Shown: positions 15,185 through 35,618, numbered from the stretch's first letter. The stretch: 64,000 bases of DNA from an uncultured Candidatus Saccharibacteria bacterium (GCA_964543265.1 CAZIWN010000001.1:38470-102469); one strand, 5' to 3'. Program-made: numbers and translations. Notes: generated by a model from the letters alone, not told the origin.

Positions 15185-17263
15185 ATGCCAGAGGAAATTT
15201 TAGAGAAAAAACCATCAGCTAAGGAAGAGGTTGACTCTTCGAGTCTTTTACCGGAAGTTATTAAAGAAAAAGATAAATCAGATTTAGTTTCTGGCGAGGT
15301 TGTTGTCCAAGAAGAAGTTTTAAAAGAGGGCGACTTGGAATTAGAAGTAGGAGTTGATGGAATAGGTCAATCTGAAGTTAGACCATTAGAGATCGATCTA
15401 TCAGGAAAATCTAATGATGTTTTGCCTACTGGCGACGGTGTAGTGGGCGATGAGTTTGAGGTTGTTGGAAGGATTTCTGATTTAGAAAAAACCGCAGACG
15501 ATTTGCCTCCTAAAAAAAGTTTTAAGGATAAATTTTTAAATATTTTAGACAGAGGCAAAGATCTTGGAAAGAATTTTTTACAAAATTCCGCAACGATTGC
15601 AGGCGATTTAGGTAGGAGAAGCGCTAAAGCTATCAGGGATAAAACTTCAGATGTTGCTGAATCATTAAAGCCCAAGTTAGAAAAAGCCATTAATGGAGCA
15701 AGAGATTTTACCGATGAAGCAGTTGCCGTTATTGGGGGCATGGCAAAAGTTGGTGCCTCTAAGCTTGGGGATAAAACAGTTGAGTTGGGGGGATTTTTAA
15801 AAGATTCAGGAATTATCATAAAGGGAGAAATAACTTCTCGCCTAGAATCGGCCGTGGCTCTAGCCGCAGATACTCTGGGAAAAATTTCTAATTCAGATAT
15901 TGTGCAGGGAGCTGTAGATAGAATTTCTATTTTTAAAAATACCATGGCCGAAGCCTGGGTTGGTTCCGGTGTTGATGAATTTAATGCTTTTATTAAGCAA
16001 CAAGAGACTGGGCTGGCGGATATAGAAAAATCTTTATCTTCTAGAAGATCAGATTTAGCCAATTTAGAGCAAATTTCTAAAGATGTTGGTTTTGATGTCA
16101 GTGAAGCCGCTAGAGAAAAACTTCAAAAAGATATAGAAAAAAAAGAAGCCGATCTAAAATCTGAAAAAGATAGAATCGACACAATGAAGGCAGAAAACAG
16201 CTTTTATGAAGTCAGGCGAACTGGTTATCTCGCTAAAATAGAGTCATCTAAAAAAAATATAGCCGACAGAATTCAAGCCAAAATAGACATAAACTCAGAG
16301 CATTCGGAAGATCTCCAAGATCGTTTAGATGAATTATCTGCAAATAAAAGAAAAAATTCCGGAGAATTAGAAAAATTAACAACTCACTTTAGGGATTTGG
16401 ATAGACTAACTAGAGAAACTGATTCCGAGGGCGCAAGGCGCTCTGCGGTTAGTTTAATGCGTCAGATTGGGCCAAGAATAAATGAATTAGAGGCAGAATT
16501 GATCGCTTGTAATAAAGATGAAGGTAAAATTTTAAAACGAAAAGCCAAAATAGATCAAAAAATAGCAAAAAATGAAGAAAATCTAGATGATATAAATTAT
16601 GAAATTAAAGAAACGCTAGATAAGGCTGATGGTGTTGAGTCAAAAAGATTTTCTGAAAGAGGGTTCTTTAAGAGATGGAATGAGGCTATGAAGGATTATC
16701 CGATAAAATGGGAAGAGATGCATTGGTTTTATGGACCAGATTTAGGAGCTAGCATACCTATAAGTAGAAGGATGATGAAAGATGATAAACATAAATCTAG
16801 ATTTATACAGATGTTGGTTAAAAGCGGTATAGATCCCAAGAGGCAGGATTTAAATAAGATATTTAAAGAAGGGCTAGATGCCATATATGGAACAAGTAAT
16901 GGCGTCGGTGGTAATAGTAAATCAGAAAAAGCTATTGATAGTAATTCAGAAACCGTAGAAGAAAAGCCAGTTTATTTCGAGGATTATTTATTAGAAGAGT
17001 CGGCTGTTAAAGAAGCAGCTCATGAAACCCAAGAAGTTAAGGGCCAAGAAAAAAGACTTTCTTTGGATGAATTTTTAGCAGCTTGGAATCAAGATTTCCC
17101 AGAGTTGTCTCTAGTGAAGGGAAACTTTGCCACCGTAAGTAAAATGAGGAGGGATAAAAGCAATATGCGCCATGTCATTTTAAACCTAGTTCACGCTCAG
17201 CATCCAGGAAGCAATCCTAAAATCGTCAAAATGTGCATTGATGCAATTTATAAAAATAAATAA
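15185..17263 (+). CDS. Large acidic coiled-coil protein, no recognisable family
   Basis: 692 aa. E/K/D-rich with long heptad-like stretches (residues ~280-470) and no TM or signal sequence. Conserved-looking C-terminal globular part (KWEEMHWFYGPDLGASIPISRRMM...). Confidence 0.6.
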   Translation: MPEEILEKKPSAKEEVDSSSLLPEVIKEKDKSDLVSGEVVVQEEVLKEGDLELEVGVDGIGQSEVRPLEIDLSGKSNDVLPTGDGVVGDEFEVVGRISDLEKTADDLPPKKSFKDKFLNILDRGKDLGKNFLQNSATIAGDLGRRSAKAIRDKTSDVAESLKPKLEKAINGARDFTDEAVAVIGGMAKVGASKLGDKTVELGGFLKDSGIIIKGEITSRLESAVALAADTLGKISNSDIVQGAVDRISIFKNTMAEAWVGSGVDEFNAFIKQQETGLADIEKSLSSRRSDLANLEQISKDVGFDVSEAAREKLQKDIEKKEADLKSEKDRIDTMKAENSFYEVRRTGYLAKIESSKKNIADRIQAKIDINSEHSEDLQDRLDELSANKRKNSGELEKLTTHFRDLDRLTRETDSEGARRSAVSLMRQIGPRINELEAELIACNKDEGKILKRKAKIDQKIAKNEENLDDINYEIKETLDKADGVESKRFSERGFFKRWNEAMKDYPIKWEEMHWFYGPDLGASIPISRRMMKDDKHKSRFIQMLVKSGIDPKRQDLNKIFKEGLDAIYGTSNGVGGNSKSEKAIDSNSETVEEKPVYFEDYLLEESAVKEAAHETQEVKGQEKRLSLDEFLAAWNQDFPELSLVKGNFATVSKMRRDKSNMRHVILNLVHAQHPGSNPKIVKMCIDAIYKNK

Positions 17264-18447: not shown

Positions 18448-19695
18448 ATGAGAAAAAAGGCAATTACGATTTTTATCCTTATAGTTTTAATTTCGGTTCT
18501 TGGTGCTTTCTTTATTTATCCAAAAAACTGGGGCGCAAACACTCGCGCCTGGAAGTTGGGCTTAGACCTTATCGGAGGATCTCGTCTCACGTATGAAATA
18601 GATATGTCTGGAGTTAAGTCTGCAGATCAAGACTCGGTTGCTTCTGGTCTCCGCGACGTCATCGAAAAAAGAGTTAATCTTTTCGGAGTTTCTGAGCCAC
18701 AAGTTTACAGTGCCAAATCTGGAGATGCTTATAGATTATCGGTTGAACTCGCTGGCATTAAAGATATAGCTGAAGCTATAAAACAAATTGGTGAAACACC
18801 ATATCTCTTCTTCGCTGAGGGAAAAGAGTCTAAAGTTGGAACAACCACAGAAACAAAATTCGTACCAACTGCCTTAGATGGAAGATATATTATTAATGCT
18901 TCTTTGGGCTTTAGCAGTAATAATGCCTTAAGTGGACCAGAAATTCTTTTAACCTTCAACGATGAAGGATCAAAATTATTCGAAGAAGTTACCGCAAGAA
19001 ATATTGGCAAACCAGTTGGGGTATTTTTGGATGGAAATCTAATCACTGCTCCAATAGTGCAGGGTAAAATTTCTGGAGGTAAGGCCCAAATCACTGGCAA
19101 CTTTACTCAAAAAGAAGCAAAGGAAATGGTTTCTCGTTTTAATGCCGGAGCTCTTCCTGCGCCAATTAGACTAATCAGTCAATCAACCGTTGGAGCTTCA
19201 ATCGGATCAGACTCATTAAGGCAAACTCTTTTAGCTGGTTTAGTCGGAATGATTTTAGTTATCTTCTTGATGCTAGTTTATTATGGATTGAACGGCTTAG
19301 CTGCAACCATCGCCTTAATCATCTACACAATTTTAGCCGGAGCCATCTTTAAACTTTTCGGAATAACAATGACTCTTTCTGGAATCGCCGGTTTTATCCT
19401 TTCCATAGGAATGGCTGTTGATGCCAATATTTTAATCTTTGAACGCACCAAAGAGGAATCCAAAAAGGGATTAGATAAAGCCACTTCTTTAGAAGAGGGT
19501 TTCAAGAGAGCCTGGCTTTCTATTAGGGATTCAAACATTTCAACCATCATCACTGCATTAATTCTTTATTATTCCACAACAGGATTTATTAAGGGATTTT
19601 CCCTAACTCTTTTAATCGGAGTTTTGGTTTCAATGTTTTCAGCCATCACAGTCACAAGGGCGATTTTGAGATCTTTCATTAAAAACAACAACTAA
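18448..19695 (+). CDS. secD: Protein translocase subunit SecD
   Basis: 415 aa. LGLDLIGGSRLTYEID, a periplasmic domain, and six C-terminal TM helices. Confidence 0.9.
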   Translation: MRKKAITIFILIVLISVLGAFFIYPKNWGANTRAWKLGLDLIGGSRLTYEIDMSGVKSADQDSVASGLRDVIEKRVNLFGVSEPQVYSAKSGDAYRLSVELAGIKDIAEAIKQIGETPYLFFAEGKESKVGTTTETKFVPTALDGRYIINASLGFSSNNALSGPEILLTFNDEGSKLFEEVTARNIGKPVGVFLDGNLITAPIVQGKISGGKAQITGNFTQKEAKEMVSRFNAGALPAPIRLISQSTVGASIGSDSLRQTLLAGLVGMILVIFLMLVYYGLNGLAATIALIIYTILAGAIFKLFGITMTLSGIAGFILSIGMAVDANILIFERTKEESKKGLDKATSLEEGFKRAWLSIRDSNISTIITALILYYSTTGFIKGFSLTLLIGVLVSMFSAITVTRAILRSFIKNNN

Positions 19696-19700
19696 AATCT

Positions 19701-20594
19701 ATGAATGTAATCGGAAAAAAATGGCTATTTATTAGCGTCTCGGCAATATTAGTTTTACTAAGCATATTCTCTATAAGTTTTTATGGTTTTAAATTAGGAA
19801 TAGATTTCACCGGTGGAACTCTCTGGCAGGTTAAGTTTGATTCACAAGTCTCTCGCGAAGATTTATCAAAATTTTTCAAGGAAAGTCTTAAAATAGATTC
19901 AGTTTCCATCGTTCCAGAAACTTCAAATAATTCCTTCATTATCAGATTACCAGAATTAAACGAGGTAGATCATCAAAAAAATTTTCAGGCCATCTCTAAG
20001 CAATTCGGAAAAACCGATGAACTTCTTTTTGAATCAATCGGAGCCTCTATCGGTGGGGAATTAAGAAGCAAAGCCATCACGGCCTTTATTTTAGTCTTGG
20101 TTGGTATCTCTTTATATATAGCTTTCGCTTTCAGAAAAGTTTCCAGACCAATCAGTTCTTGGAAGTATGGAGTAATCACTCTCTTAACTCTTTTCCACGA
20201 CGCTATAATCCCAGCCGGACTTTTCTCATATTTAGGTCATAAAATGGGAGTTGAAGTTGATACAAACTTCATTGTTGCAATCTTAGTGGTTATGGGTTTC
20301 TCGGTTCACGACACTATCGTTGTTTTTGATAGAATCAGAGAAAATCTAAGACGCATCGGTGGTAAAGCAGTTGATTTTAATTCTTTAGTAAATGATTCAG
20401 TCAATCAGACATTTGTTCGTTCAGTTAATACTTCTTTAACCCTTATTTTGGTTTTGATTGCTCTCTACTTCTTAGGGGCAGTAAGTCTTAAATATTTCGT
20501 TCTAACAATGCTTGTGGGAACCATAGTTGGAACTTATTCTTCAATCTTTATAGCGAGTCCATTCCTTACAATTTGGAGAAAGAAAGAAAATTAA
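19701..20594 (+). CDS. secF: Protein translocase subunit SecF
   Basis: 297 aa. GIDFTGGTLWQVKF and C-terminal TM bundle. 5-nt gap after secD. Confidence 0.9.
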   Translation: MNVIGKKWLFISVSAILVLLSIFSISFYGFKLGIDFTGGTLWQVKFDSQVSREDLSKFFKESLKIDSVSIVPETSNNSFIIRLPELNEVDHQKNFQAISKQFGKTDELLFESIGASIGGELRSKAITAFILVLVGISLYIAFAFRKVSRPISSWKYGVITLLTLFHDAIIPAGLFSYLGHKMGVEVDTNFIVAILVVMGFSVHDTIVVFDRIRENLRRIGGKAVDFNSLVNDSVNQTFVRSVNTSLTLILVLIALYFLGAVSLKYFVLTMLVGTIVGTYSSIFIASPFLTIWRKKEN

Positions 20595-20681: not shown

Positions 20682-20711
20682 ATTTGACACTATTCAACAT
20701 ATCTGATATAC
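20682..20711 (+). promoter_or_regulatory. Near-consensus sigma70 promoter upstream of the HTH regulator gene
   Basis: TTGACA, 17 nt, TATACT. A second, weaker ttgaca element follows at ~20743. Confidence 0.5.
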
Positions 20712-20814
20712 TATATAAACAAAAACCTAAAACACGGATTCGCCATATTTGACATTGATTTTGTAAAGTGGTAGTCTTGTTTATATAAATAAAAGAGGTG
20801 ATTTTGGCAAAAAC

Positions 20815-21888
20815 ATGGTTACAAAAAACAAAATGTTTGAAAATGTAAATACGTTCGTCGATGACTTCTTAAAATCTAATCTTTCAGGAAGATACCAAGA
20901 AGTTATTAGGTGTCGCTATGGAATTGATGGCGCCAACCCAGAAACTTTGCAAGCTATCGGAAATCGCTATGGTATTACCAGAGAAAGAGTCCGCCAGATA
21001 GAAGCTCTCGCCTTAGAAAATCTTTTAAAAGTTGCCAAAAACTATCCAAACCTTATTAAGTTAATGGATACAGCTACAAGCAGATTAAAATCTGTAGGTG
21101 GAATAGAAGAGGAAGGATCTCTTTTGAATTATTTAAAAACATCTTTAAATCATGGAGAAATAGATGCTAGATTTGCCAATTCAATTAAGTTTGTTTTAGA
21201 GCTTTCTGGAAAAATCAATCGCCACAGCGATAATTATGATAAAGATTGGAGATGTTATTGGTATTTAGGAAAGGAAGAAGAGTCTAAAGCAAAAGGCTTC
21301 ATTACTAAACTTGTTTCATCTCTAAATTCAAAAAAGAACGCTATCGTTTCAGGAAATAATTTTAATGAAGTTTTTGCTCAGGTAACAAAGCAAAGCAACT
21401 TAAAAGAAGAGACAGCTAAAAATCTATTAGCTATTTCTAAAAAGTTTGTCACTGGTCCTTTTGGGCACTTCGGTCTTGCTGATTGGTCAGAAATAAATCC
21501 AAAAACAGCCAGAGATTGGGCTTATGCTATTTTAAAGAAAGAACAAAAACCGCTTCACTTCTCCGAGCTTTACAAAATGATCTCTGGACATAGATCTGAT
21601 AAAAAGACTAATCTCCAAACTGTTCACAACGAATTAATTAAAGACGAAAGATTTGTCTTAGTCGGTCGCGGACTTTATGGATTAAAAGAGCACGGATTAA
21701 TCCCTGGAACTGCCAAAGAAATAATTGCTCATTTCTTGAAAAAGCATGGTCCAATGACTCATAAAGAAATCAGCGAGCTTGTCTTAGGTCAAAGGATGAT
21801 CAAGCCAACAACAATAATGATCAATCTTCAAAATAAGAAGCACTTCGTAAGCACTCCAGACGGAAAATACGACGTAAAAGAAGCTTAA
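20815..21888 (+). CDS. DNA-binding protein with an N-terminal sigma-70 region-4-like HTH and a C-terminal HARE-HTH-like winged helix; candidate regulator of the downstream operon
   Basis: 357 aa. EVIRCRYGIDGANPETLQAIGNRYGITRERVRQIEALALENL resembles sigma region 4.2. The C-terminal ...HNELIKDERFVLVGRGLYGLKEHG matches the HARE-HTH motif seen in RpoE (delta). Confidence 0.55.
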   Translation: MVTKNKMFENVNTFVDDFLKSNLSGRYQEVIRCRYGIDGANPETLQAIGNRYGITRERVRQIEALALENLLKVAKNYPNLIKLMDTATSRLKSVGGIEEEGSLLNYLKTSLNHGEIDARFANSIKFVLELSGKINRHSDNYDKDWRCYWYLGKEEESKAKGFITKLVSSLNSKKNAIVSGNNFNEVFAQVTKQSNLKEETAKNLLAISKKFVTGPFGHFGLADWSEINPKTARDWAYAILKKEQKPLHFSELYKMISGHRSDKKTNLQTVHNELIKDERFVLVGRGLYGLKEHGLIPGTAKEIIAHFLKKHGPMTHKEISELVLGQRMIKPTTIMINLQNKKHFVSTPDGKYDVKEA

Positions 21889-21890
21889 TA

Positions 21891-21927
21891 AAAAAACAGT
21901 CCCGATATATATCGCGACTGTTTTTTT
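21891..21927 (+). terminator. Rho-independent terminator separating the regulator gene from the five-gene operon
   Basis: acagtcccgatat/atatcgcgactgt stem followed by T7. Confidence 0.6.
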
Positions 21928-21952
21928 ATGTTAATATATATCTAATACAGAT

Positions 21953-23275
21953 ATGTTTGATTTTATAAAAAACTTCTTAGGATCAGATGTTCTAAATTAT
22001 GTTTTAGTTGGAATTAAGGCGATATACCCAATCATAATTTTTCCGATAATATTTGAAGTCACCAGATCTCTCTGGTTATTTTGGAGGCAATCAATTTTTA
22101 AAGCAGGAATTAAATTTGTTGTTTTAGAAATGAGAATTCCTAGAGAAATCTTGAAAAGCCCTCAGGCCATGGAGCAAGTTTTAGTCGGAATGCATTCATT
22201 GAGAAATTCCCCAAGTGATTTTAATAGAAATATAAGAGAAAAATATTGGGACGGAGAGGTTACTAAATGGTTTACCTTAGAAATAGTTTCCGATGGTGGG
22301 GAGCTTCATTTTTATATAGTTACAGATAAAAAATTAAGAAGTTTAGTTGAAACATCTTTTTTTTCATATTATCCAGATCTAGAACTTGTTGAGGTTCCAG
22401 ATTATATGCCTCGTATTCCCAAAAATACTGGAGAACTCGAAGCTCAAGATAAAGATATTTGGGGTGTTGAATTGGTGCTTGGCAAGGAAGAAGCATATCC
22501 AATCAAAAGCTACACCGAGTTTGAATCTCCCGACGATGCTAAAAAATTTGATCCAGCTTCAGTCTTTTTAGAAATAATGAGTAAAATCCAGAAAGTTGAA
22601 TTTTTAAGTATACAAATAGTAATAGCTCCAGGAGATCCAAAATGGTTTGAAGCTTTCGATGATTTATTAGAAGAAATTAAAGGATTGAAACAAGAAGAAG
22701 ATTCAGATATAAAAAATTTAAGCAAACTCTACGCTAGAACTCCTGGTGAAACGGAGGTATTAAAGGCTGTTGAAAAAAATCTCTCCAAACCTTGTTTTGA
22801 TACTATTATTAGAATTTTCTATCTTTCCTCTAAGGGAACGTTCTTGGATTCTTATGCCAGAAGGGGTATGATCGGAGCTTTTAATCAATATAGTAATTTA
22901 GAGTTAAATTCTTTTAAACAAAATTTTCCAACCGGAACAGGAGTTCTTCCTTGGGCTCCACCATTCTTTTTCTCAGACATAAGATCAAAATATAGGAAAA
23001 ATAGATTTTTGAATTGGTATATAAATAGAGAAGTTCCCCCAGAAACTAAAATGGGCAGATGGATAACCTCTTATTTTTGGAATAAAAATTACGGCTCAAA
23101 ATTTGTTAAATTAAACACAGAATCAATTGCCAGCATCTTTCATCCGCCAACCAATCTTGTCTTAACAGCTCCTCACATCAAAAGAATGGAAAGTAAAAAA
23201 GCTTCTCCATCTGCTGGAATGTCTATTTTTGGAGATGAGAAAGATATAGAAATGTTTACCAAGAAGCAAAAATAA
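21953..23275 (+). CDS. Hypothetical protein with an N-terminal membrane anchor and a large C-terminal domain of unknown function (operon gene 1)
   Basis: 440 aa. Hydrophobic segment VLNYVLVGIKAIYPIIIFPIIF near the N-terminus. The rest is soluble and matches nothing I recognise. Confidence 0.6.
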   Translation: MFDFIKNFLGSDVLNYVLVGIKAIYPIIIFPIIFEVTRSLWLFWRQSIFKAGIKFVVLEMRIPREILKSPQAMEQVLVGMHSLRNSPSDFNRNIREKYWDGEVTKWFTLEIVSDGGELHFYIVTDKKLRSLVETSFFSYYPDLELVEVPDYMPRIPKNTGELEAQDKDIWGVELVLGKEEAYPIKSYTEFESPDDAKKFDPASVFLEIMSKIQKVEFLSIQIVIAPGDPKWFEAFDDLLEEIKGLKQEEDSDIKNLSKLYARTPGETEVLKAVEKNLSKPCFDTIIRIFYLSSKGTFLDSYARRGMIGAFNQYSNLELNSFKQNFPTGTGVLPWAPPFFFSDIRSKYRKNRFLNWYINREVPPETKMGRWITSYFWNKNYGSKFVKLNTESIASIFHPPTNLVLTAPHIKRMESKKASPSAGMSIFGDEKDIEMFTKKQK

Positions 23276-23276
23276 T

Positions 23277-23882
23277 ATGAATAATTCTTTCGATTTTAAT
23301 ATAATAAATTCATTTATAGATAATCCTTTTGGGTTTGTTAACGTTATTTGGAAATTTATAGTATCTTTATTCACTGGAACAGATGTTGGTGGTTACACGT
23401 TTTCTGCCTTCGGAATAATTAGAACTATGTTTTTAATTTTAGATATTATTCTAATAATTTTATTTTTTATCGCCTTTTTTGCTTCATTAAAATTCAAACC
23501 AGATCTTGTTCCAAGGAAACCTAAACCAGAAACAAAGTCTAGAGAGTTAAAAATTAGAGAAAAAGCTTTTCGTGATCGCTGGATTAATGTCTTAAAGGTT
23601 GCCTCTCAAGGAACACCAGAAGCATTAAAAGTTGCCATAATCGACGCCGACAAACTGGCCGACGATTCCCTAAAGCAATTAGGTATTATAGGGGAGACTA
23701 TGGCAGATAGGATCGAAGAAATAACTTCAGACGAAGTGGCTTCGATAGATAGATTATTATCTGCCCACAGAGTCAGAAACGATCTAGTTCATAATCCTGG
23801 CTTTGAAATTTCAAAACACAAAGCCAAAAATCTTCTCGAAGACTACGAAGCATTCTTTAAAGACATAGATTTATTAAGTTAG
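23277..23882 (+). CDS. Small membrane protein with a C-terminal alpha-helical domain carrying an Rx4H (HEPN-like) motif (operon gene 2)
   Basis: 201 aa. TM helix MFLILDIILIILFFIAFFASL, and a C-terminal ...LSAHRVRNDLVHNPGFE (R-N-x3-H). 1-nt gap from the upstream gene. Confidence 0.55.
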   Translation: MNNSFDFNIINSFIDNPFGFVNVIWKFIVSLFTGTDVGGYTFSAFGIIRTMFLILDIILIILFFIAFFASLKFKPDLVPRKPKPETKSRELKIREKAFRDRWINVLKVASQGTPEALKVAIIDADKLADDSLKQLGIIGETMADRIEEITSDEVASIDRLLSAHRVRNDLVHNPGFEISKHKAKNLLEDYEAFFKDIDLLS

Positions 23883-23892
23883 TTCCAGCAAT

Positions 23893-25323
23893 ATGCCAAA
23901 ATCAAGCAAGGTTCAGATAATAAAATACGCGCCACCGCCGTCAGAACTTCCAATTTACGGCAAAGTTGAATCAAGTAAGGTTTCTTTTATTGGAAGAACT
24001 AATTACACGGCAGCATTAGAAGAAAAAAAATTCATCTTCGGCATTAAGAGGGCCGATAGGCGCCGTCATGTTTATATCATTGGTAAATCTGGTGTTGGCA
24101 AATCCAAATTATTAGAGCTTTTTATTCGCCAAGATATTTCTTGGGGTTATGGAGTTTGCTTAGTCGATCCGCACGGAGACGTGATAGATAATATTTTGGA
24201 TTTTATTCCAGAAAACAGAATTAACGATGTTTTATTAATAGATCCTTCAGATAAAGATTTTCCGGTTTCTTTCAATCCATTAAAGAATGTCGATCCTAAT
24301 TTCAAACACCAGCTTGCTCAAGGCCTTATTGAGGTTATGCAAAAACAATTTGGCGCCAATTGGACACCTCGTTTAGAGCACGTTTTCAGATTCACTATTC
24401 TTGCATTGCTAGATTATCCAGATGCGACGATGAAAGGTATGATTTTGATTTTAACCGACAGGAGTTATCGCCAAAAAGTAATTGAACATATTACAGACGA
24501 TATGGTTAAGCGTTTTTGGGCCACAGAATTTGCCGACTGGTCAGAAAAATTTGATACAGAAGCCATTATTCCTTTAGTAAATAAATTAGGGCAGTTTCTT
24601 TCCAATCCTTTATTAAGGAATATTTTCGGGCAAACCGAAAACAAAGTTGATTTCGAAAAACTAATGAACGAACAAAAGATTATTTTAATTAATCTTTCAA
24701 AAGGTAAACTTGGAGAAGAAAATTCCAGTTTTTTAGGTTCAATGTTTATTACTAAGATAAAACAAGCTGGTATGGCTCGCGCCAATTTAAGAGAAAAGGA
24801 AAGAAAAGATTTTTATCTCTACGTGGATGAATTTCACAATCTTGTTACGGCAACTTTTGAAAATCTTCTATCCGAAGCTAGAAAATACGGTCTTTGCTTA
24901 ACTGTCGCTCATCAATATTCCGGACAATTAATTCCAATTGTTCAAGCTGCGGTTTTGGGCAATACTGGTTGTTTAATTGTTTTCAGAATTGGCGGGGAAG
25001 ATGCTGTTAAACTCCAACCAGAAATGGCGCCAGTTTTTGAAGTGAAAGATATGATTAATCTTGGTATGCAGGAATTTTATATAAAAATGACTATAGATGG
25101 AGAAACTTATGATCCATTTTCCGCAGAAACATTAAAAATTCTCCCAAGCGTTCATTCCTCGTTCAGAGATAAAATTATAGAATCTTCTAGAAAAAAATAT
25201 GCTATTTCTCTTTCAGAATTAAATGTAGACCCAAACACTTCAAAAAAATCAGAATCTAAAATTATTGAAAATAAAAATAATTCAGAAACAAATCTCCACT
25301 CTCAACCAGAACCTCTAATATGA
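23893..25323 (+). CDS. TraD/VirD4/TrwB-like FtsK-HerA superfamily ATPase, soluble with no TM anchor (paralog 1)
   Basis: 476 aa. Walker A IIGKSGVGKS followed by LVDPHGD (the DPxGE box of coupling proteins), Walker B FYLYVDEFH, and AHQYSGQL (the Q-rich motif of TraG/VirD4). Confidence 0.75.
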   Translation: MPKSSKVQIIKYAPPPSELPIYGKVESSKVSFIGRTNYTAALEEKKFIFGIKRADRRRHVYIIGKSGVGKSKLLELFIRQDISWGYGVCLVDPHGDVIDNILDFIPENRINDVLLIDPSDKDFPVSFNPLKNVDPNFKHQLAQGLIEVMQKQFGANWTPRLEHVFRFTILALLDYPDATMKGMILILTDRSYRQKVIEHITDDMVKRFWATEFADWSEKFDTEAIIPLVNKLGQFLSNPLLRNIFGQTENKVDFEKLMNEQKIILINLSKGKLGEENSSFLGSMFITKIKQAGMARANLREKERKDFYLYVDEFHNLVTATFENLLSEARKYGLCLTVAHQYSGQLIPIVQAAVLGNTGCLIVFRIGGEDAVKLQPEMAPVFEVKDMINLGMQEFYIKMTIDGETYDPFSAETLKILPSVHSSFRDKIIESSRKKYAISLSELNVDPNTSKKSESKIIENKNNSETNLHSQPEPLI

Positions 25324-27065
25324 TAAAAATCTGCCAATTCTGTAAAAAAGATTTTGAAGTAACTCCAGACGATGTGGTTTTTTACGAATCCGTAAAAGTC
25401 CCTCATCCTACATGGTGCGAAGAATGCAGAATGCTCCGCAGATTTATTTGGATGAATCAAAGAGTTCTATACAGAAGAAAGGATTCTTTAACAGGTAAAG
25501 AGATATTTTCTGGAATCCACGAATCAGCTCCGGTGAAAGTTTGCGATAGGGATTTTTGGTGGGGTGATGGCTGGGATCCTATAATTTTCGGTAAAGAGTA
25601 TGATTCTTCTAAAACATTTTTTGGGCAATTTAAAGATTTGATGCAGTCCGTTCCTTGGGCGGCTAGAAATGTAGTTAACTTAAACAATTCAGATTACACC
25701 AACGATGCTAGCGAGCTTAAAAATTCTTATCTATGTTTTTCCTCTTCTAGAATAGAAAACAGTGGTTATTTAATGATGGCAACAGATATCAAAGACAGTT
25801 TCGATCTTTTCGAAACAGGGGATAGCGAACTTTGTTATGAGGGTTATATGGTAGACGATTCTTATAAGGTTTTTTATTCCATCAATTGCGATAATTGTTC
25901 AAATATCTGGTTCTCAAAGGATTTAATGGGTTGTGAAAATTGTTTTGGCTGCGTTAATTTAGTTAATAAATCTTATTGCATTTGGAACGAGCAAAAAACC
26001 AAAGAGGAATTTGAGGAATTTATGAATAAGTTTAAATCCGGATCTTATTCCGAAATTTCTTCGACTATTAAAAAGTCTAGAGAATTTTGGAGCAATTTTC
26101 CTGTCAGGTTTACTCTCGGATTTAGAAACTTTGATTGTTGGGGCGAACACATCCAAGATTCAAAAAACGTTAAGCACTCATTTGACATTCATTCTTCCGA
26201 AAATCTTAAATATTGCCAAATGATAGATGATGGCAATAATTCCTATGACCAAACCCTTTGGGGAGACAATTCTTCTTATGTTTATGAGGGTGTAAATCTT
26301 GGAGCTAACGTTAATAACATAAAATTTTCATACAATATCTGGCCAGAATCTTTTGATGTGGAATATTCTGCATTTTGCCATTCTTCGTCAAATCTTTTCG
26401 GATGTTTCGGCTTGAGAAAAAAAGAATATTGCATCTTAAATAAGCAATATCCTAAAGAAGAATATTTTAAGCTCAAAGAAAAAATTGTTCAGGAAATGAA
26501 TTTAAATCCATATACAGATAAAATGGGTATTATTTATAAATATGGAGAATTTTTCCCAATTGAATTTTCCCCATTCGGCTATAACGAAACTATGCTCAAT
26601 AAGTTCTTTCCAAAAACAGAGACAGAAGCAGTTTCGTTAGGATTTAAGTGGTTAAAAGAAAATAAAAAAGAGTTTCAGTCCACTGTCGAATCAAATAATT
26701 TAGCGGACGATATTTCTAATATCGGTCAATATATTTTAAAAGAAATCATAAAATGCAGCTCTTGCGCTTCTGTTTACAGAATAATTCCTTTAGAGTTGGA
26801 ATTTTTAAAGCAAAACAAATTGCCTGTTCCACGAAGCTGTCCAGATTGCAGATTTAAAGACAGATTTCAATTTGTAAATCCTCCTAAGTATTGGGATAAG
26901 TCTTGTGATTGTGGATCTACGGAAGCGACAAGAATATATAAAAACAATAATTCTAATCACGCCCATCAAAACTCTCAATGTCAGAATAAATTCAAAACCA
27001 GCTATCCTCCAGGCAAAGCCAAAATAATATACTGCGAAGATTGTTATCGCAGTGAGATTATATAA
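25320..27065 (+). CDS. Multi-zinc-ribbon protein with internal tandem Cys-repeat modules (operon gene 4)
   Basis: 581 aa. N-terminal CQFCKK...CEECRM ribbon. Central repeated ~45-aa units (…NIWFSKDLMGCENCFGCVNLVNKSYCIWNEQ / …SSSNLFGCFGLRKKEYCILNKQ). C-terminal CSSC...CPDC...CDCG...CEDC ribbons. ATGA start/stop overlap with the upstream ATPase gene. Confidence 0.6.
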   Translation: MIKICQFCKKDFEVTPDDVVFYESVKVPHPTWCEECRMLRRFIWMNQRVLYRRKDSLTGKEIFSGIHESAPVKVCDRDFWWGDGWDPIIFGKEYDSSKTFFGQFKDLMQSVPWAARNVVNLNNSDYTNDASELKNSYLCFSSSRIENSGYLMMATDIKDSFDLFETGDSELCYEGYMVDDSYKVFYSINCDNCSNIWFSKDLMGCENCFGCVNLVNKSYCIWNEQKTKEEFEEFMNKFKSGSYSEISSTIKKSREFWSNFPVRFTLGFRNFDCWGEHIQDSKNVKHSFDIHSSENLKYCQMIDDGNNSYDQTLWGDNSSYVYEGVNLGANVNNIKFSYNIWPESFDVEYSAFCHSSSNLFGCFGLRKKEYCILNKQYPKEEYFKLKEKIVQEMNLNPYTDKMGIIYKYGEFFPIEFSPFGYNETMLNKFFPKTETEAVSLGFKWLKENKKEFQSTVESNNLADDISNIGQYILKEIIKCSSCASVYRIIPLELEFLKQNKLPVPRSCPDCRFKDRFQFVNPPKYWDKSCDCGSTEATRIYKNNNSNHAHQNSQCQNKFKTSYPPGKAKIIYCEDCYRSEII

Positions 27066-27085
27066 TTCTTTGATATACTTAATTT

Positions 27086-28864
27086 ATGGCAGAAGAACCA
27101 AGAAATAATAAAGATTTCATCTATTTAGGAAAAACAAACTTCCGAAACGCCGAGCGCCTTTTCGGCATAAAAAGAAAAGATAGGCGACAGCACACATATA
27201 TCATCGGTAAATCTGGCGGTGGTAAAAGCGCCTTGATTCACAATATGATCGTTCAAGACATTATGAATGGAGACGGATTAGCTATTGTTGATCCTCACGG
27301 AGAGCTTGTTGAATCAATCTTGGATAAAATTCCAGAAAGTAGAGTTAATGATGTTGTTTATTTAAATCCAGCCGATCCCGATTTTCATATTGGCTTTAAT
27401 GTTTTAGAGGTTCCAGATCCAAACTATAGGCATTTAATCGCCTCTGGCTTAATGTCTATTTTCACTAAAATCTGGGCAGGAGTTTGGTCCGCTAGAATGG
27501 AATACATTTTAAACAATGCCGTCTTAGCTCTTCTAGAAAATCCAGGCTCGACACTTTTAGGTTTAACTAGAATTTTGGTTGATAGAGGCTATAGGCAAAA
27601 ACTTGTGGCTAATATTAAAGATCCAGTAGTTAAAGCTTTTTGGGTTAATGAGTATGAACAATGGGAGCCAAAATTTAGAAACGAAGCCATAGCTCCAATT
27701 CAAAACAAGGTTGGTCAGTTTCTTTCCAGTAGCATCATTAGGAATATTGTTGGCCAAGCCAAAAGCACCATCAATTTTTTTGACATAATGAACGAGAAAA
27801 AAATTCTTCTCGTTAACGTTTCAAAAGGAAGAGTTGGAGAGGATAATTCTGCCCTACTTGGCGCAATGTTTATCACTAAAATCCAACTTGCCTCAATGGA
27901 GCGCGTCCGCATTGAAGAATCAGAAAGACAAGATTTCTATTTATATGTAGACGAATTTCAAAATTTTGCCACAGATTCTTTTGCCAGCATTCTTTCGGAA
28001 TCTAGAAAATATCGTCTAGATTTAATTATTGCTCATCAATACGTGGGGCAATTAGTCACATCTTCTTCGACCAAGGTTCGCGATGCAGTTTTTGGAAACG
28101 TGGGAACTATGATTGTCTTTAGGATCGGCGCAGCCGATGCCGAATTTTTACTGAACGAATTTTCTCCAGAAATAACTGAAGAAGATATGGTCAGTCTTCC
28201 AAATTACAACATCTATATCAAACTTTTAGTAGACGGAGTTTCAACTAGGCCATTTTCAGCTGTCACTTTGCCTCCATTTAATATTCCAGCAGTCTGCGCC
28301 CCAAGAGAGGCCGTTATAGAAAGCTCTAGGCGCCTTTATGCTAAATCTAGGGAATCTATAGAAAGAGAAATAGGTCGCTGGAGTGGAATGTCTGGTCCAG
28401 ATGTTGAAGATGATAAAGATTCAAAAGATAATCATAAAAATTCAGATCCAAAAACCGCTTCAGCTCCAAAAAGCGGAGAAGGTAAGTACGAGGCCAAGTG
28501 CGCCTCTTGTGGCAAGAACACTAAAGTTCATTTTAAGCCAACAGACGACAAGCCTGCCTATTGCGACGATTGTTTTAAGAAGATTAAAGCCAACAAATCA
28601 GAAGTAACTAAAAGCTATGAGTCCACTTTAGACACTTCCGATTTGGCCTCTATGGGAATTGAATTTGAGGTTAAAAAAGGTAATCCTAAACCAAAGGAGC
28701 CTGATAATAAAAAGATTAAACCAGCAGAAGAGATTCATTTAAAAGATCTTCCAGAAAGTAATTTCGTAAAGCATGAACACAAAAAAACAGACAAACAAAA
28801 AGCCGATATGGAAGAGTTAAAAAACGCTCTTCGAGACGCTTTAAATAAAAACGGTAAAGAATAA
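27086..28864 (+). CDS. TraD/VirD4/TrwB-like FtsK-HerA superfamily ATPase (paralog 2) with a C-terminal CxxC...CxxC zinc ribbon and a K/E-rich tail
   Basis: 592 aa, ~50% identical to paralog 1 over the ATPase core (IIGKSGGGKS, VDPHGE, LYVDEFQ, AHQYVGQL). Extra C-terminal CASCGKNTKVHFKPTDDKPAYCDDC and a low-complexity basic/acidic tail. Confidence 0.75.
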   Translation: MAEEPRNNKDFIYLGKTNFRNAERLFGIKRKDRRQHTYIIGKSGGGKSALIHNMIVQDIMNGDGLAIVDPHGELVESILDKIPESRVNDVVYLNPADPDFHIGFNVLEVPDPNYRHLIASGLMSIFTKIWAGVWSARMEYILNNAVLALLENPGSTLLGLTRILVDRGYRQKLVANIKDPVVKAFWVNEYEQWEPKFRNEAIAPIQNKVGQFLSSSIIRNIVGQAKSTINFFDIMNEKKILLVNVSKGRVGEDNSALLGAMFITKIQLASMERVRIEESERQDFYLYVDEFQNFATDSFASILSESRKYRLDLIIAHQYVGQLVTSSSTKVRDAVFGNVGTMIVFRIGAADAEFLLNEFSPEITEEDMVSLPNYNIYIKLLVDGVSTRPFSAVTLPPFNIPAVCAPREAVIESSRRLYAKSRESIEREIGRWSGMSGPDVEDDKDSKDNHKNSDPKTASAPKSGEGKYEAKCASCGKNTKVHFKPTDDKPAYCDDCFKKIKANKSEVTKSYESTLDTSDLASMGIEFEVKKGNPKPKEPDNKKIKPAEEIHLKDLPESNFVKHEHKKTDKQKADMEELKNALRDALNKNGKE

Positions 28865-28866
28865 AA

Positions 28867-28898
28867 CTAAAAACCTCGCATTAATGCGAGGTTTTTAG
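28867..28898. terminator. Bidirectional terminator between the ATPase operon (+) and efp (-)
   Basis: aaaaacctcgca-ttaa-tgcgaggttttt. Perfect palindrome with A/T tracts on both sides. Confidence 0.8.
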
Positions 28899-28906
28899 TT
28901 AAAAGC

Positions 28907-29482
28907 TTATTCTTTTCCTTTTTCTACTCTTTCGTAGTATTCGCCAGTCTGCGTATTAACTTTCACAATATCTCCTTCATTTACGAATAGTGGGGCATTA
29001 ACCACGGCTCCGGTTTCTAAAACAATTTGCTTTGTTCCGCCGGTTGCTGTATCTCCCTTATATCCAGGAGGAGCTTCTTTTACTTTTAAGTCCATTTTTA
29101 CAGGAACATCTATTCCTATAATCCTTTCTCCAAACTTAATAGCGTTAACTTCTGTATTAGCTTTTAAAAATTTTCCAGGATTTCCAACCAATTCTTCTTT
29201 TAAAGAAAATCTCTTAGAAGGATCTTTTATTTCACAGAACCAAAATTCTCCTTTTGTATTATATAAATACTTAATAGGTCTCTTTTCGATTTCAGCTTCA
29301 TCAAAACTTTCACTGGAGTGGAATGATTGTTCCGTGATTTTTCCAGTTATCAAATTTCTAAGCTTTGTTTTAGATACTGGTTTTCTCTGTTGCATTCTCA
29401 AAAACTCGTAATCTAATACTTCGTATGGCTCTCCATTCATTACGAAAACAATACCTTTTTTTAATTCGTTATAAGCTAACAT
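28907..29482 (-). CDS. efp: Elongation factor P
   Basis: 191 aa. MLAYNELKKGIVFVMNGEPYEVLDYEFL... and the KOW/OB arrangement typical of EF-P. Confidence 0.9.
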   Translation of the reverse strand: MLAYNELKKGIVFVMNGEPYEVLDYEFLRMQQRKPVSKTKLRNLITGKITEQSFHSSESFDEAEIEKRPIKYLYNTKGEFWFCEIKDPSKRFSLKEELVGNPGKFLKANTEVNAIKFGERIIGIDVPVKMDLKVKEAPPGYKGDTATGGTKQIVLETGAVVNAPLFVNEGDIVKVNTQTGEYYERVEKGKE

Positions 29483-32751: not shown

Positions 32752-33321
32752 ATGCTTATCGTAGTTACTGGAAACGGAAAGGGTAAAACAACTTCCGCCC
32801 TAGGCCAATCTTTAAGAATGATTGGGCGCGGAAAAAAAGTTTTATTTATTCAGTTTATTAAAGGACCTTGGAAATCTGGTGAAGATGAATTTGTGGCAAA
32901 ACTTCAAAATCAAAAAGCTAAATTAAGCTCAGAACAGTCTTTGGGTTTAGAAAATCTCTATAATTTTGAAATTCGAAAAATGGGCAAGGGTTTTGTGGGG
33001 ATCTTAGACGACAATCTTCCGTTTGAGGAGCATAAAAAATCAGCTCAAATTGCTTTAAAAGAGTTCGAAACAGAACTTGCTTCAAATAAATGGGACATGA
33101 TTGTTTTAGACGAAATAAATGTGGCCACATCTTTAAATCTTTTAACTCCACAAGAAGTTTTAAGATCTCTTAAAAATGTCCCGCTAGAAAAATTTGTAAT
33201 GCTTACGGGCCGCAGCGCTCCTCAAGAGTTTATAGACGCCGCAGATTTAGTTTCTGAAGTAAAAGAAATTAAACATCCTTTCAATGATGGAAAACTTGCA
33301 AAAATCGCTCTCGAATTTTAG
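32752..33321 (+). CDS. CobA/CobO/BtuR-family P-loop protein (ATP:corrinoid adenosyltransferase-like)
   Basis: 189 aa. MLIVVTGNGKGKTTSALGQSLRMIG... matches the GNGKGKTT P-loop of cob(I)yrinic acid a,c-diamide adenosyltransferases. Confidence 0.7.
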   Translation: MLIVVTGNGKGKTTSALGQSLRMIGRGKKVLFIQFIKGPWKSGEDEFVAKLQNQKAKLSSEQSLGLENLYNFEIRKMGKGFVGILDDNLPFEEHKKSAQIALKEFETELASNKWDMIVLDEINVATSLNLLTPQEVLRSLKNVPLEKFVMLTGRSAPQEFIDAADLVSEVKEIKHPFNDGKLAKIALEF

Positions 33322-34754: not shown

Positions 34755-35618
34755 ATGGAAAATTTTCACAGAAAATTATATTTCCCAATTTTTTGTCTAG
34801 TTATTTTAAATATCTTTATTTGGAATCTTATTTTTTCAGTTAAAACTGGAATAAAATTATATTTTCTAAATGTCGGGCAAGGGGATTCAGAGTTAATAGA
34901 GTTTTCTAGCGGGAGATTCTCCAATCCCGTTCATATTCTAATCGACGCAGGCGTAGCCAATGGCGAATCGCTTAAGAATTTAGATAAAATAATCTCTCCT
35001 TTTTCTAAAAAAATAGATTTAGCCATAGCAACGCACGCCCAACTAGATCATTTCGGGGGATTTATGGATATATTTCAAAAATATAAAGTTGGATATTTTA
35101 TTTCAAACGGCAAGCCAAATACCACCAGATCATATGAATCTTTAATGAATATTATTGATGCTCAAAAAATAAACACAATAAAGCTCGTAGAGGGGGATTC
35201 AATTTCCTATGGAGACTACAAATTAAAAGTATTATCTCCCGACGCGCCATCGTTGGCCTCGAAAGAATTAAACGACGGTTGCTTGGTCACAAAACTAGAA
35301 TCAAAAGATTTAACCGCCCTTTTCACCTGCGACATTGGCTTTAATATAGAAGATATTTTAGTAAAAAAATATAATCTCGCTTCAGACGTCTTAAAAGTTC
35401 CCCATCACGGCTCCAGATTTTCCTCCAGTGCCAGTTTCCTCTCCGCAGTTTCTCCAAAAGTTTCAATTATAGAAGTTGGCAAAAACACCTACGGCCACCC
35501 CACGCCCGATGCCCTAAAGCGCCTATCCAGCTCCGCCAGTTTAATTTTCACCACAAAAGACAATGGGACAATCCTAGTTGAACCAATAAATAATTTATTA
35601 AAAGTTTATAAAATGTAA
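34755..35618 (+). CDS. Membrane-anchored MBL-fold metallo-hydrolase corresponding to the ComEC C-terminal beta-lactamase domain
   Basis: 287 aa. N-terminal TM helix, HxHxDH motif ATHAQLDHFGG, and LKVPHHGSRFSS as in ComEC nuclease domains. Confidence 0.8.
   Translation: MENFHRKLYFPIFCLVILNIFIWNLIFSVKTGIKLYFLNVGQGDSELIEFSSGRFSNPVHILIDAGVANGESLKNLDKIISPFSKKIDLAIATHAQLDHFGGFMDIFQKYKVGYFISNGKPNTTRSYESLMNIIDAQKINTIKLVEGDSISYGDYKLKVLSPDAPSLASKELNDGCLVTKLESKDLTALFTCDIGFNIEDILVKKYNLASDVLKVPHHGSRFSSSASFLSAVSPKVSIIEVGKNTYGHPTPDALKRLSSSASLIFTTKDNGTILVEPINNLLKVYKM

Follow-up and report, generated by a model that had tools for sequence, protein, structure and literature searches.

A chromosomal secDF-efp module with two VirD4/TraD-like ATPases and a DUF8128 membrane anchor: a possible Paceibacteria form of a Patescibacteria-wide ATPase pair

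Coupling proteins of the VirD4/TraD/TrwB type are P-loop ATPases of the FtsK-HerA superfamily with an all-alpha insert and an N-terminal transmembrane (TM) domain within the same polypeptide. VirB4, represented by TrwK of R388, consists of an N-terminal alpha/beta domain and a C-terminal ATPase, and VirB3-VirB4 fusions add an N-terminal TM segment. The archaeal proteins CedB and CedD are two chromosomal paralogues outside conjugative elements, each with a TM segment, a VirB4-N-terminal-domain-like fold, and a HerA/VirB4-type ATPase domain of the HerA clade, and their partners are the CedA/CedE channel and Ups pili. In Patescibacteria, 5,713 VirD4-type homologues are recorded in 2,918 of 3,035 genomes (~2 per genome, ~96%), with 148 of them near virB4, and the family already appears there as "T4CP homologues far from virB4" (PMC12102498). 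The same source reports separate, bona fide VirB4 proteins in 2,417 Patescibacteria genomes, fewer than the 2,918 with T4CP homologues. The T4CP-like family is near-universal in Patescibacteria.

The module described here occupies positions 20682-28898 of the window, which is the whole stretch of DNA analysed: 64 kb (64,000 nt) from an uncultured Candidatus Saccharibacteria bacterium (GCA_964543265.1 CAZIWN010000001.1:38470-102469). Its six open reading frames (ORFs) all lie on the plus strand, between secD/secF (18448-20594) and efp (28907-29482, minus strand, convergent with the operon). REG (20815-21888; 357 aa) forms its own transcription unit and is followed by P2 (21953-23275; 440 aa), P3 (23277-23882; 201 aa), ATPase A (23893-25323; 476 aa), P5 (25320-27065; 581 aa), and ATPase B (27086-28864; 592 aa), with successive junctions of 1 nt, 10 nt, a 4-nt ATGA overlap, and 20 nt. 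A sigma-70-like REG promoter lies on the plus strand at 20684-20712 (TTGACA-17-TATACT with an extended -10 TG; 11/12 matches); the promoter-like sites in the region do not exceed shuffles in total, so this site counts as a consensus match only. Hairpin terminators with z-scores of -7 to -9.5 follow secF (-26.6 kcal/mol), REG (21888-21929, plus strand; -19.5 kcal/mol, z = -9.5, then a T-run), and ATPase B (28865-28900; 16-bp stem, -23.0 kcal/mol, z = -9.5), the last of which is bidirectional and serves both the operon and efp, which converges on it.

Recomputed from the sequence, the six genes with their coordinates, spacing and secDF/efp flanks, the promoter, the terminators, and the ATPase motifs all agree with an earlier note on this DNA. 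Its claim of host-like base composition agrees with a uniform GC content of 0.33-0.36, and its report that VirB-type channel, relaxase, integrase, and phage genes are missing is matched by their absence among the window ORFs scanned. Relaxase/Dtr or Mpf genes (VirB4 etc.) are found neither in the 64-kb window nor in related loci. The judgement that the module is chromosomal and not a named system is also borne out, and no description of the module appears in the literature searched.

ATPases A and B belong, by Pfam thresholds, to the VirD4/TraD coupling-protein family. TrwB_AAD_bind (PF10412) scores 33.9 bits for A and 48.9 for B (cut-off 20.5), TraG-D_C (PF12696) scores 22.9 and 28.3 bits (cut-off 22), and both proteins pass the Pfam cut-off for T4SS-DNA_transf and also match DUF87, in the case of A above its cut-off. 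All of the TraD/VirD4 signatures claimed earlier occur in both: Walker A (GKSGVGKS / GKSGGGKS), the DPHGD/E box, hhhhDEF in the form YLYVDEF, and AHQYxGQL. The sequence of the TrwB structure (1e9r/1gl6) gives a weak direct match (E = 0.006). The two ATPases are paralogues as proposed, although the measured identity is 46% rather than ~50%. TM segments are predicted in neither, and the Pfam matches and TM prediction together support their description as TraD/VirD4-family paralogues without TM anchors of their own.

The curated equivalog cut-offs are all failed by both ATPases, with NCBIfam TraD at 43-46 bits against 366, SXT_TraD at 35 against 250, and CD1115 at 26 against 521. Each of these thresholds is at least 7 times the score reached, which separates A and B from VirD4/TraD/TrwB proper. 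Unlike those proteins, the two are chromosomal paralogues that do not sit beside relaxase or Mpf genes, and the N-terminal TM domain is absent from their polypeptides; the anchor would instead be P2, acting in trans with a VirB4-N-terminal-domain-like fold. Among other families, CagE_TrbE_VirB gives no match, AAA_10 reaches 18.2 bits against 27.5 (E = 0.0014), TIGR00929 reaches 15.6 against 643, and the FtsK_SpoIIIE motor (PF01580) matches neither ATPase at E <= 0.1.

The termini of the two paralogues are distinct. ATPase A begins with a junction motif, IIKYAPPPSELPIYG, and ends in PEPLI, and an F-E-E-P-[LI]-[LI] C-terminal tail is found in 117/118 A-type fusions. This acidic-hydrophobic tail of A-type proteins is reminiscent of the tail by which TraD docks TraM. 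ATPase B carries a CxxC-x17-CxxC zinc ribbon at residues 468-500 (zf_Tbcl_2, 2e-13; TIGR04272, 1e-13) and a tail rich in K/E, both of which had been noted before.

P2 is predicted to be a single-pass membrane anchor carrying DUF8128 (PF26449), with a VirB4-N-terminal-domain-like fold. One TM helix is predicted at residues 12-37, and the positive-inside rule places the bulk of the protein in the cytoplasm. A precomputed PF26449 match is on record for the identical P2 protein and nearly all of the homologues listed, and in a Foldseek search with the P2 model TrwK accounts for 13 of the 13 top matches and is the sole strong structural match. The protein had been described earlier as N-terminally membrane-anchored and of unknown fold; the anchor stands and the second part gives way to DUF8128. 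At the sequence level, P2 shows no similarity to PDB chains or to TrsD/TrsE of pSK41. The TrsD/TraD protein of pGO1/pSK41 is a split VirB4 N-terminus; hhalign of A1 gave E = 0.44 against pSK41 TrsD and E = 0.27 against TrsE, although setting one sequence against a profile is of low sensitivity.

P2-like domains are fused N-terminally to the ATPase in 61/150 of the nearest ATPase representatives, 28 of these 61 with a TM helix, and the operon therefore represents a split [TM]-[VirB4-NTD-like]-[VirD4-like ATPase] protein with paralogues A and B. P2 aligns with the N-terminus of P0253 at 99.8% probability (hhalign, E = 5e-28). Precomputed Pfam matches place PF26449, DUF87, and T4SS-DNA_transf on one chain in 107/119 of the P0327 homologues listed, some of which NCBI names as Gracilibacteria or Bdellovibrionota, and the phrog_5156 profile aligns with P2 at positions 76-212 and with the ATPases at 383-815. 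The domain is fused in 37/100 B-type relatives, and P2 matches B-type fusions (median E 1e-33) far more strongly than A-type fusions (1e-11). In alignment, the C-terminus of P2 and the N-terminus of ATPase A share the junction motif, which in A is what remains of a DUF8128 linker. These comparisons show that the ancestral form of each ATPase was a single chain of TM helix, DUF8128, and VirD4-like P-loop ATPase with all-alpha insert; that the B protein is split here into P2 (anchor and DUF8128) and ATPase B, its detached C-terminal half; and that ATPase A has lost its N-domain and kept the junction motif alone. The earlier note did not recognise P2 as the DUF8128 (VirB4-NTD-like) part cut away from the B-type ATPase, nor did it see the two gene pairs, the spread of the family across Patescibacteria, or the essential probable counterpart of one paralogue.

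The ancestral fusion has the VirB4-type order, an N-terminal domain of that fold followed by a C-terminal ATPase and sometimes preceded by a TM segment as in VirB3-VirB4 fusions. It differs from VirB4 in that P2 lacks sequence similarity to VirB4, the ATPase domains score as VirD4-like, and A and B are not encoded with VirB3, VirB6, or VirB8. By Pfam content, the Patescibacteria T4CP homologues (Quinonero-Coronel et al. 2025; SEML1_0142/SEML1_0293) are the same family, and they share its ~two copies per genome, distance from virB4, and standing as a Patescibacteria-enriched core family. The earlier T4CP papers treated these genes as isolated T4CPs, in contrast with the operon reading given here, which adds the DUF8128 domain, the split and fused forms, the A/B/X clades, and the P3 and P5 partners. 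EccB/EccD and Dot/Icm components are absent from the module; EccC-EccE and Dot/Icm are analogies only. Among the known anti-phage systems in PADLOC (MADS, HerA-type), the full gene complement of none is present.

REG contains a Sigma70 region 4 (residues 22-70) and a HARE-HTH winged helix (233-292) by profile matches, and its domain content predicts a DNA-binding protein. A REG-type gene lies upstream of the B-type ATPase gene in 25/38 metagenome loci with enough upstream sequence.

P3 has one predicted TM helix (residues 41-78) and a cytoplasmic helical C-terminal domain bearing AHRxRNxLVH, with the RNDLVH motif present. In its orthologues H164 and R167 are invariant, N168 is nearly so, and H172 occurs in 10/12. 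The Rx4H motif in a TM protein was thus correctly noted, but its HEPN assignment is weak: HEPN_Swt1 reaches E = 0.045 and 14.5 bits against a cut-off of 27.5, and 3/12 members are matched, at E >= 0.035. The C-terminal domain may be HEPN-like. P3 has been detected so far in Paceibacteria-type loci only.

P5 contains 27 Cys and 8 CxxC motifs, as expected of the Cys-rich zinc-ribbon protein described before. From N- to C-terminus it has a zinc ribbon, two acidic beta-solenoid segments, another zinc ribbon, and a terminal finger of treble-clef-like type. Neither signal peptide nor TM segment is predicted, in keeping with a cytoplasmic protein. P5-type genes occur with A-type ATPase genes in 4/7 loci against 1/80 (p = 8e-5), and the ATGA overlap of the ATPase A and P5 genes suggests translational coupling. 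Two conserved gene pairs lie side by side in the cluster: REG goes with P2/B, and A with P5. Coupling ATPases can carry small zinc-binding and adaptor subunits, as in the Legionella DotL-DotN-IcmSW assembly, which is a possible model for P5 by analogy and not by claimed sequence kinship.

The gene order secDF-REG-P2-P3-A-(P5)n-B-efp is kept in 16 genome loci, with a variable number of P5 genes. Identity across loci is 71-80% for ATPase A, 48-62% for SecD, and 51-56% for EF-P, and ATPase A seems to evolve much more slowly than is usual for a coupling protein. P5 ranges from 0 to 5 copies per locus at 29-48% identity. In Bdellovibrionota and Gracilibacteria the fused orthologues lie singly among housekeeping genes, and T4SS genes are absent within 8-10 kb. 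The module is a housekeeping system, neither a mobile element nor a defence island. On the favoured reading, Patescibacteria as a whole have a pair of VirD4/VirB4-family ATPases, A and B, and the module is the form that this pair takes in Paceibacteria.

Its function is most likely that of a membrane-tethered translocation motor, probably serving a Patescibacteria T4SS encoded elsewhere. P2 would sit in the membrane with DUF8128 facing the cytoplasm and recruit ATPase B, and probably also A, to form ATP-driven motor rings on the inner face of the membrane, which would resemble VirB4 or CedB/CedD assemblies. Least certain of all, the A/B motors may be the coupling or energising ATPases that the chromosomal T4SS otherwise lacks, and would feed it a macromolecular substrate (DNA or protein) or pull one through. 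The zinc-ribbon/beta-solenoid protein P5, variable and multi-copy, is linked to A and could act as an adaptor or cargo; REG, linked to B, could be a DNA-binding partner or regulator, and P3 a lineage-specific membrane accessory. Taken whole, from split A/B motors through membrane assembly to T4SS service, this account could about equally be right or wrong. T4SS channel genes are absent from the 64-kb window, and the T4SS linkage is one that we infer. The occurrence of T4CP homologues in more genomes than VirB4, the solitary fused orthologues, and the seemingly unusual slowness of ATPase A evolution speak against this account.

Several observations in other genomes bear on that linkage, and they point in the direction of the minimised T4SS-related translocation device that was one of two functions suggested earlier. 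The T4SS cluster of Southlakia epibionticum lacks a recognisable coupling protein (PMC10633639). In Tn-seq of this species (Wang et al. 2023), T4CP-like SEML1_0142 (1019 aa) scored ES/ES/ES, REG-like SEML1_0294 scored ES, and T4CP-like SEML1_0293 scored NE. SEML1_0294 has the same architecture as REG and lies directly upstream of SEML1_0293. SEML1_0142 and SEML1_0293 are assigned to the A/B family by annotation, size, and gene order rather than by sequence. SEML1_0142, the probable counterpart of one ATPase paralogue, is essential in this species, the only relative with Tn-seq results. The homologue in this species has been called non-essential (Quinonero-Coronel et al. 2025), a verdict that holds for SEML1_0293 only. 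An Embleya plasmid T4CP, 29% identical and with a similarly long N-terminus, lies between a VirB4-like gene and a relaxase gene, with PrgI and NlpC/P60 encoded in the same cluster, and Phage G gp156 adjoins a gene annotated "VirB-like".

It is conceivable, though rather unlikely, that the A/B pair and its DUF8128 anchor form a T4SS-independent nucleic-acid translocase for import or handling at the membrane, like CedB/CedD and perhaps with ComEC and type IV pili. CedB/CedD have the same architecture and two paralogues and are needed for DNA import (bioRxiv 10.1101/2024.09.27.615246), in other lineages the fused orthologues occur by themselves in housekeeping surroundings, and T4CP-like genes occur in more genomes than VirB4. 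Treble-clef-like zinc fingers on ATPase B and P5 and the high conservation, which fits a universal substrate such as DNA, point the same way. The NCBIfam CedD matches are weak, however (NF053655, 40.1 bits for A and 24.6 for B against 600), and the operon has no polytopic membrane protein and no CedA/VirB6-like channel protein. ComEC lies within ~10 kb of the module in the window and in L001, L008, L010, and L016, but this nearness carries little weight because it is part of a broadly conserved housekeeping order (secDF...efp-mnmA), and the ComEC link drawn earlier has synteny as its only basis. Reviews of Wang et al. 2023 describe comEC and competence as dispensable in S. epibionticum, whereas SEML1_0142 is essential. 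A separate, improbable reading makes the pair a dedicated protein-export or handling motor, in which ATPase A would recognise the P5 family as cargo for delivery to the envelope or host cells, by analogy with effector-T4CP pairs or the EccC-EccE module of type VII secretion. The linkage of P5 to A-type genes, the ATGA overlap, the variable copy number and fast divergence of P5 beside a conserved ATPase, and the frequency of beta-solenoids in secreted adhesins would suit it. P5 nevertheless lacks an export signal or TM segment and has several zinc sites of the Cys4 type that is usual in cytoplasmic proteins, its conserved residues are spread along the full length rather than concentrated in a terminal signal, and many loci (L008, L014, L016, L017-L019) keep the ATPases without it.

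The other function suggested earlier, an anti-phage or anti-plasmid defence module that pairs DNA-translocase ATPases with P3 as a membrane HEPN-like RNase effector, is very improbable. PADLOC reports mad8 matches (2e-13, 1e-13) and weak HerA matches, P3 has an RNxxxH motif with sub-threshold HEPN_Swt1 and HepT-like matches, and the variability of P5 resembles an arms race. Yet the PADLOC matches are confined to the generic P-loop core, other MADS/HerA-system components are absent, and P2, P3, and P5 return nothing, while the HEPN histidine is missing in 2/12 orthologues. Unlike defence islands, the locus keeps its place between secDF and efp throughout a whole class, and ATPase A changes more slowly than either SecD or EF-P. 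The family occurs in ~96% of Patescibacteria genomes (PMC12102498), and SEML1_0142, the inferred counterpart of one paralogue, is essential for growth. Slightest of all is the prospect of a decayed integrated conjugative element or prophage of which the coupling-protein genes alone were kept. Distant relatives do occur on plasmids (best 39%, then 29%) and in Bacillus phages (up to 29%), some of them beside VirB4-like genes, but P2 has no plasmid match and the window contains no integrase, relaxase, repeats, or compositional shift. The position, the sequence, and the intact reading frames of the module are conserved across many genomes.

The window encodes two paralogous VirD4/TraD-family ATPases within a six-gene module that is real, conserved, and uncharacterised. 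The module fits best as a variant among VirB4/VirD4-type ATPase systems and is not assigned to any curated T4CP, VirB4, Ced, HEPN, or defence family. Its plus-strand genes encode the DNA-binding protein REG (20815-21888), the membrane anchor P2 (21953-23275), the membrane protein P3 (23277-23882), ATPase A (23893-25323), the Cys-rich protein P5 (25320-27065), and ATPase B (27086-28864). The six ORFs, and the gaps from P2 onward (1 nt, 10 nt, an ATGA overlap, and 20 nt), are as the earlier note described them, as are the flanking secD/secF and efp genes and the lack of VirB-type, relaxase, integrase, or phage genes in the window. The efp gene is convergent, and GC is flat at 0.33-0.36. REG likewise has the sigma-70-like promoter claimed for it (11/12 matches, extended -10) and its own hairpin terminator. 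Hairpins 3' of secF, REG, and ATPase B have folding energies of -26.6, -19.5, and -23.0 kcal/mol (z-scores -7 to -9.5). Only ~23 nt (21930-21952) lie between the REG terminator and the start codon of P2, with neither a clear -35 element nor a clear Shine-Dalgarno sequence, and expression of the operon may depend on read-through of the terminator or on a near-leaderless mRNA.

ATPase A and ATPase B both contain the Walker A, DPHGD/E, YLYVDEF, and AHQYxGQL motifs, and a TM helix is predicted in neither, as first proposed; their identity, put earlier at ~50%, is 46%. Both score above the gathering cut-offs of the Pfam models TrwB_AAD_bind, T4SS-DNA_transf, and TraG-D_C. They score far below all of the curated NCBIfam models TraD, SXT-TraD, CD1115, and CedD, and a PDB sequence search with the ATPases returned TrwB as its sole, weak match.

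P2 and P3 each have the one predicted TM helix expected of them, and basic residues follow the helix in both proteins, so the bulk of each should face the cytoplasm. P2 has no match in the local Pfam copy; an identical protein bears the precomputed domain PF26449 (DUF8128), and literature searches on PF26449/DUF8128 found no paper mentioning DUF8128. The AlphaFold model of P2 is confident (pLDDT 85.5, pTM 0.83), and the top 13 Foldseek matches to it are TrwK chains (E = 5e-6 to 5e-5). P2 lacks a P-loop, and hhalign of P2 against ATPase A aligns only a 17-residue junction motif, beyond which no similarity in sequence to the ATPase domain is detected; the structural match of the predicted model is therefore taken as probably to the VirB4 N-terminal domain. 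PDB sequence searches with P2 and P3 profiles gave nothing meaningful.

P2 and the ATPases correspond to parts of a single protein in other genomes. Scanned in full with HMMER, 1.8 billion cluster representatives yielded 5,802 ATPase A relatives at E <= 1e-30; a P2-like domain is fused N-terminal to the ATPase in 61 of the closest 150, and 28 of these 61 fusions carry an N-terminal TM helix. The P2 profile aligns with one fused representative, P0253, at 99.8% probability (hhalign, E = 5e-28), and in precomputed Pfam annotation PF26449, DUF87, and T4SS-DNA_transf occur within single chains, some of them NCBI-named as Gracilibacteria, Bdellovibrionota, or Oligoflexia. In phrog_5156, P2 matches the N-terminal region and the two ATPases match the C-terminal region. 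The N-domains of B-type relatives match P2 at a median E of 1e-33 versus 1e-11 for A-type relatives, and the start of ATPase A, IIKYAPPPSELPIYG, corresponds to the end of P2, HIKRMESKKASPSAGMSIFG, within the junction motif. In our reading of these sequences, P2 and ATPase B would be the two parts of a split B-type protein, and ATPase A would be an A-type protein whose N-domain is gone. Ancestrally, the layout would be [TM]-[VirB4-NTD-like]-[VirD4-like ATPase], a hybrid of the two T4SS ATPase families.

The gene-neighbourhood check bore out a conserved gene order: secD-secF-REG-P2-P3-A-(P5 x 0-5)-B-efp-mnmA recurs in 16 genome loci, with a minimal variant (L016) that holds only REG-P2-one ATPase-efp. 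ATPase A is under strong purifying selection. Measured against the window proteins in the same loci, true orthologues of ATPase A are 71-80% identical, followed by ATPase B (58-74%), SecD (48-62%), SecF (44-58%), EF-P (51-56%), MnmA (54-55%), P2 (31-54%), REG (33-53%), and P5 (29-48%). A small CutA1-like gene lies beside or between the two ATPase genes in three loci (L008, 13603-13908; L020, 9192-9467; L021, 18616-18921) and is missing from the window operon.

A further 80 metagenome loci, recovered with B-type fusions, contain three ATPase clades. A-type proteins (~750 aa) end in F-E-E-P-[LI]-[LI], B-type proteins (900-1170 aa) are fused or split, and X-type proteins (~800 aa) end in ..SRLKYGR..VEAEI..RARL. 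Where enough upstream sequence was available, REG is the gene immediately preceding the B-type gene in 25 of 38 loci, versus 0 of 14 for X-type genes. P5 genes occur no more than 6 kb from 4 of 7 A-type genes versus 1 of 80 others (p = 8e-5); the loci are not phylogenetically independent, so the p-values for these linkages overstate the evidence. Given these two linkages, the window module combines a conserved REG-P2/B pair and a conserved A-P5 pair with P3, which is lineage-specific. In other CPR lineages (L032, L033, L043, L048, L075, L108), the X-type gene precedes the B-type gene in tandem, and precedes REG as well where REG was detected (L043, L108).

The A-type tail is nearly invariant: F-E-E-P-[LI]-[LI]-COOH occurs at the extreme C-terminus of 117 of 118 fused A-type proteins (P0395-P0512), where ~1 would be expected by chance. 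Some of these fusions are named as Gracilibacteria or Bdellovibrionota, and ATPase A of the window ends in PEPLI (25303-25323). The motif looks like a docking peptide. P5 has 3,858 homologues but belongs to no described family. Its confident model (pLDDT 81.8, pTM 0.84) places two acidic beta-solenoid segments between zinc ribbons, and a fold search returned generic beta-solenoids only, with no functional lead. Related treble-clef-like zinc fingers (zf_Tbcl_2) are found in ATPase B residues 468-500 (28487-28585; 2e-13) and at the P5 C-terminus (26973-27065; 0.048), and their kinship hints at a common ligand. REG consists of sigma-70 region 4 and a HARE-HTH domain.

Both paralogues probably have counterparts in S. 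epibionticum. Wang et al. (PMC10633639) found its T4SS to be essential, with a T4SS gene cluster that has no recognisable coupling protein, and their Tables S1 and S2 contain two T4CP-like proteins, each extended N-terminally by ~360-400 aa. The Tn-seq data of Table S1 class SEML1_0293 as non-essential and SEML1_0142 as essential at each of the three time points (ES/ES/ES). The gene immediately upstream of SEML1_0293, SEML1_0294, encodes an essential 349-aa protein with Sigma70_r4 and HARE-HTH domains, which is exactly the architecture of REG; all three genes are flagged as Patescibacteria-enriched core families (PMC10633639). From gene order and annotation, SEML1_0293 is probably the B-type protein and SEML1_0142 the other paralogue. 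Published data thus already mark one paralogue and a REG-like gene as essential. A 2025 survey (PMC12102498) called the S. epibionticum t4cp homologue not essential; since the Tn-seq table has two T4CP-like genes, one of them essential, that statement covers one paralogue only.

The proposed mechanism is that P2 would tether ring-forming A and B motors at the cytoplasmic face of the membrane, with P5 as the putative partner of A and REG that of B. In the most speculative step, the motors may serve a chromosomal T4SS encoded elsewhere in the genome, perhaps importing host macromolecules. The translocation device related to T4SS that the earlier note offered as one option is broadly right. Service to a T4SS is favoured by a distant actinomycete plasmid relative that has a similar long N-terminus and sits inside a real T4SS/relaxase cluster, and by gp156 of phage G, which adjoins a VirB-like gene. 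It is disfavoured by the fused orthologues of Bdellovibrionota and Gracilibacteria, which are solitary amid housekeeping genes, and by the presence of T4CP-like genes in more genomes than VirB4. Quinonero-Coronel et al. (PMC12102498) surveyed 3,035 Patescibacteria genomes and counted 5,713 VirD4-type homologues, spread over 2,918 of the genomes; just 148 of the homologues lay near virB4, and the authors proposed exaptation of VirD4-type genes as a possibility.

The main rival to T4SS service is an autonomous nucleic-acid translocase resembling Ced. CedB/CedD of Sulfolobales are the closest characterised architectural analogue, being two paralogues with TM, VirB4-NTD-like, and ATPase parts that are needed for DNA import. 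The distance from the operon to the downstream ComEC is 4.4 kb, and ComEC pieces are also within ~10 kb in L001, L008, L010, and L016; this proximity, however, is part of the general synteny, and the competence machinery is reportedly dispensable in S. epibionticum. We consider it rather improbable that the A/B DUF8128-ATPases are an autonomous, T4SS-independent housekeeping motor of bacteria living on bacteria (Patescibacteria including Gracilibacteria; Bdellovibrionota/Oligoflexia), importing or processing host-derived nucleic acid or another macromolecule, with the F-E-E-P-L-I tail, P5, and the sigma-r4/HARE-HTH protein as docking, specificity, and DNA-recognition parts. If true, they would be a translocation machine of a new class, with its origin in type IV secretion but no longer part of a T4SS. 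The other option raised earlier, an anti-phage or anti-plasmid defence module with a HEPN-like effector, is not supported: PADLOC matches only the generic P-loop, and the HEPN matches of P3 (motif AHRxRNxLVH) are sub-threshold. Signatures of mobility and defence are absent.

Patescibacteria are a large part of bacterial diversity and depend on host cells. Their T4SS is essential with a role described as 'completely unknown', and import of host macromolecules through it has been proposed (PMC11665869). Split or fused VirB4-NTD/VirD4 hybrids are offered here as candidates for the missing coupling ATPase, none being recognisable in the Patescibacteria T4SS gene cluster, with their anchor identified as DUF8128, in Pfam a domain of unknown function, and their conserved partners defined as REG for B and P5 for A. 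Together with the essentiality calls, these yield specific hypotheses that are experimentally addressable in S. epibionticum, and the hybrid architecture is relevant to the divergence between the VirB4 and VirD4 lineages.

Prophage and plasmid/ICE origins were considered and rejected. PHROGs and tblastn against phages gave distant relatives only (<= 29% identity), and tblastn against plasmids gave <= 39% identity for ATPase A and zero matches for P2. By hhalign, P2 has no similarity to pSK41 TrsD or TrsE and matches the N-terminus of an Embleya T4CP at E = 0.03; shared motifs suggest that the two may be related. Distant relatives that likewise join a long N-terminus to a VirD4-like ATPase adjoin VirB4-like genes both on the Embleya plasmid (L023), in a T4SS cluster with PrgI, relaxase, and NlpC/P60, and in the jumbo Bacillus phage G (L027; gp155-gp156).

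The remaining window genes are housekeeping (tgt, glycosyltransferases, rsmE, mnmA, murD, split comEC, tuf, fusA, an asnS/aspS-type synthetase, uvrB, and uvrA), and an Rfam scan of the window found three tRNAs only. ComEC is encoded by two adjacent ORFs, one with the Competence and DUF4131 domains (33284-34753) and the next with the metallo-beta-lactamase part (34755-35618). A 978-aa ORF on the minus strand (8193-11129) joins a phosphoglucose-isomerase domain (69-424) to an alpha-amylase catalytic domain (456-901), an unusual fusion. Upstream of rsmE, a 692-aa K/E-rich protein without a Pfam family (15185-17263), probably a coiled coil, is kept in the closest relative, L001, at 61% identity.
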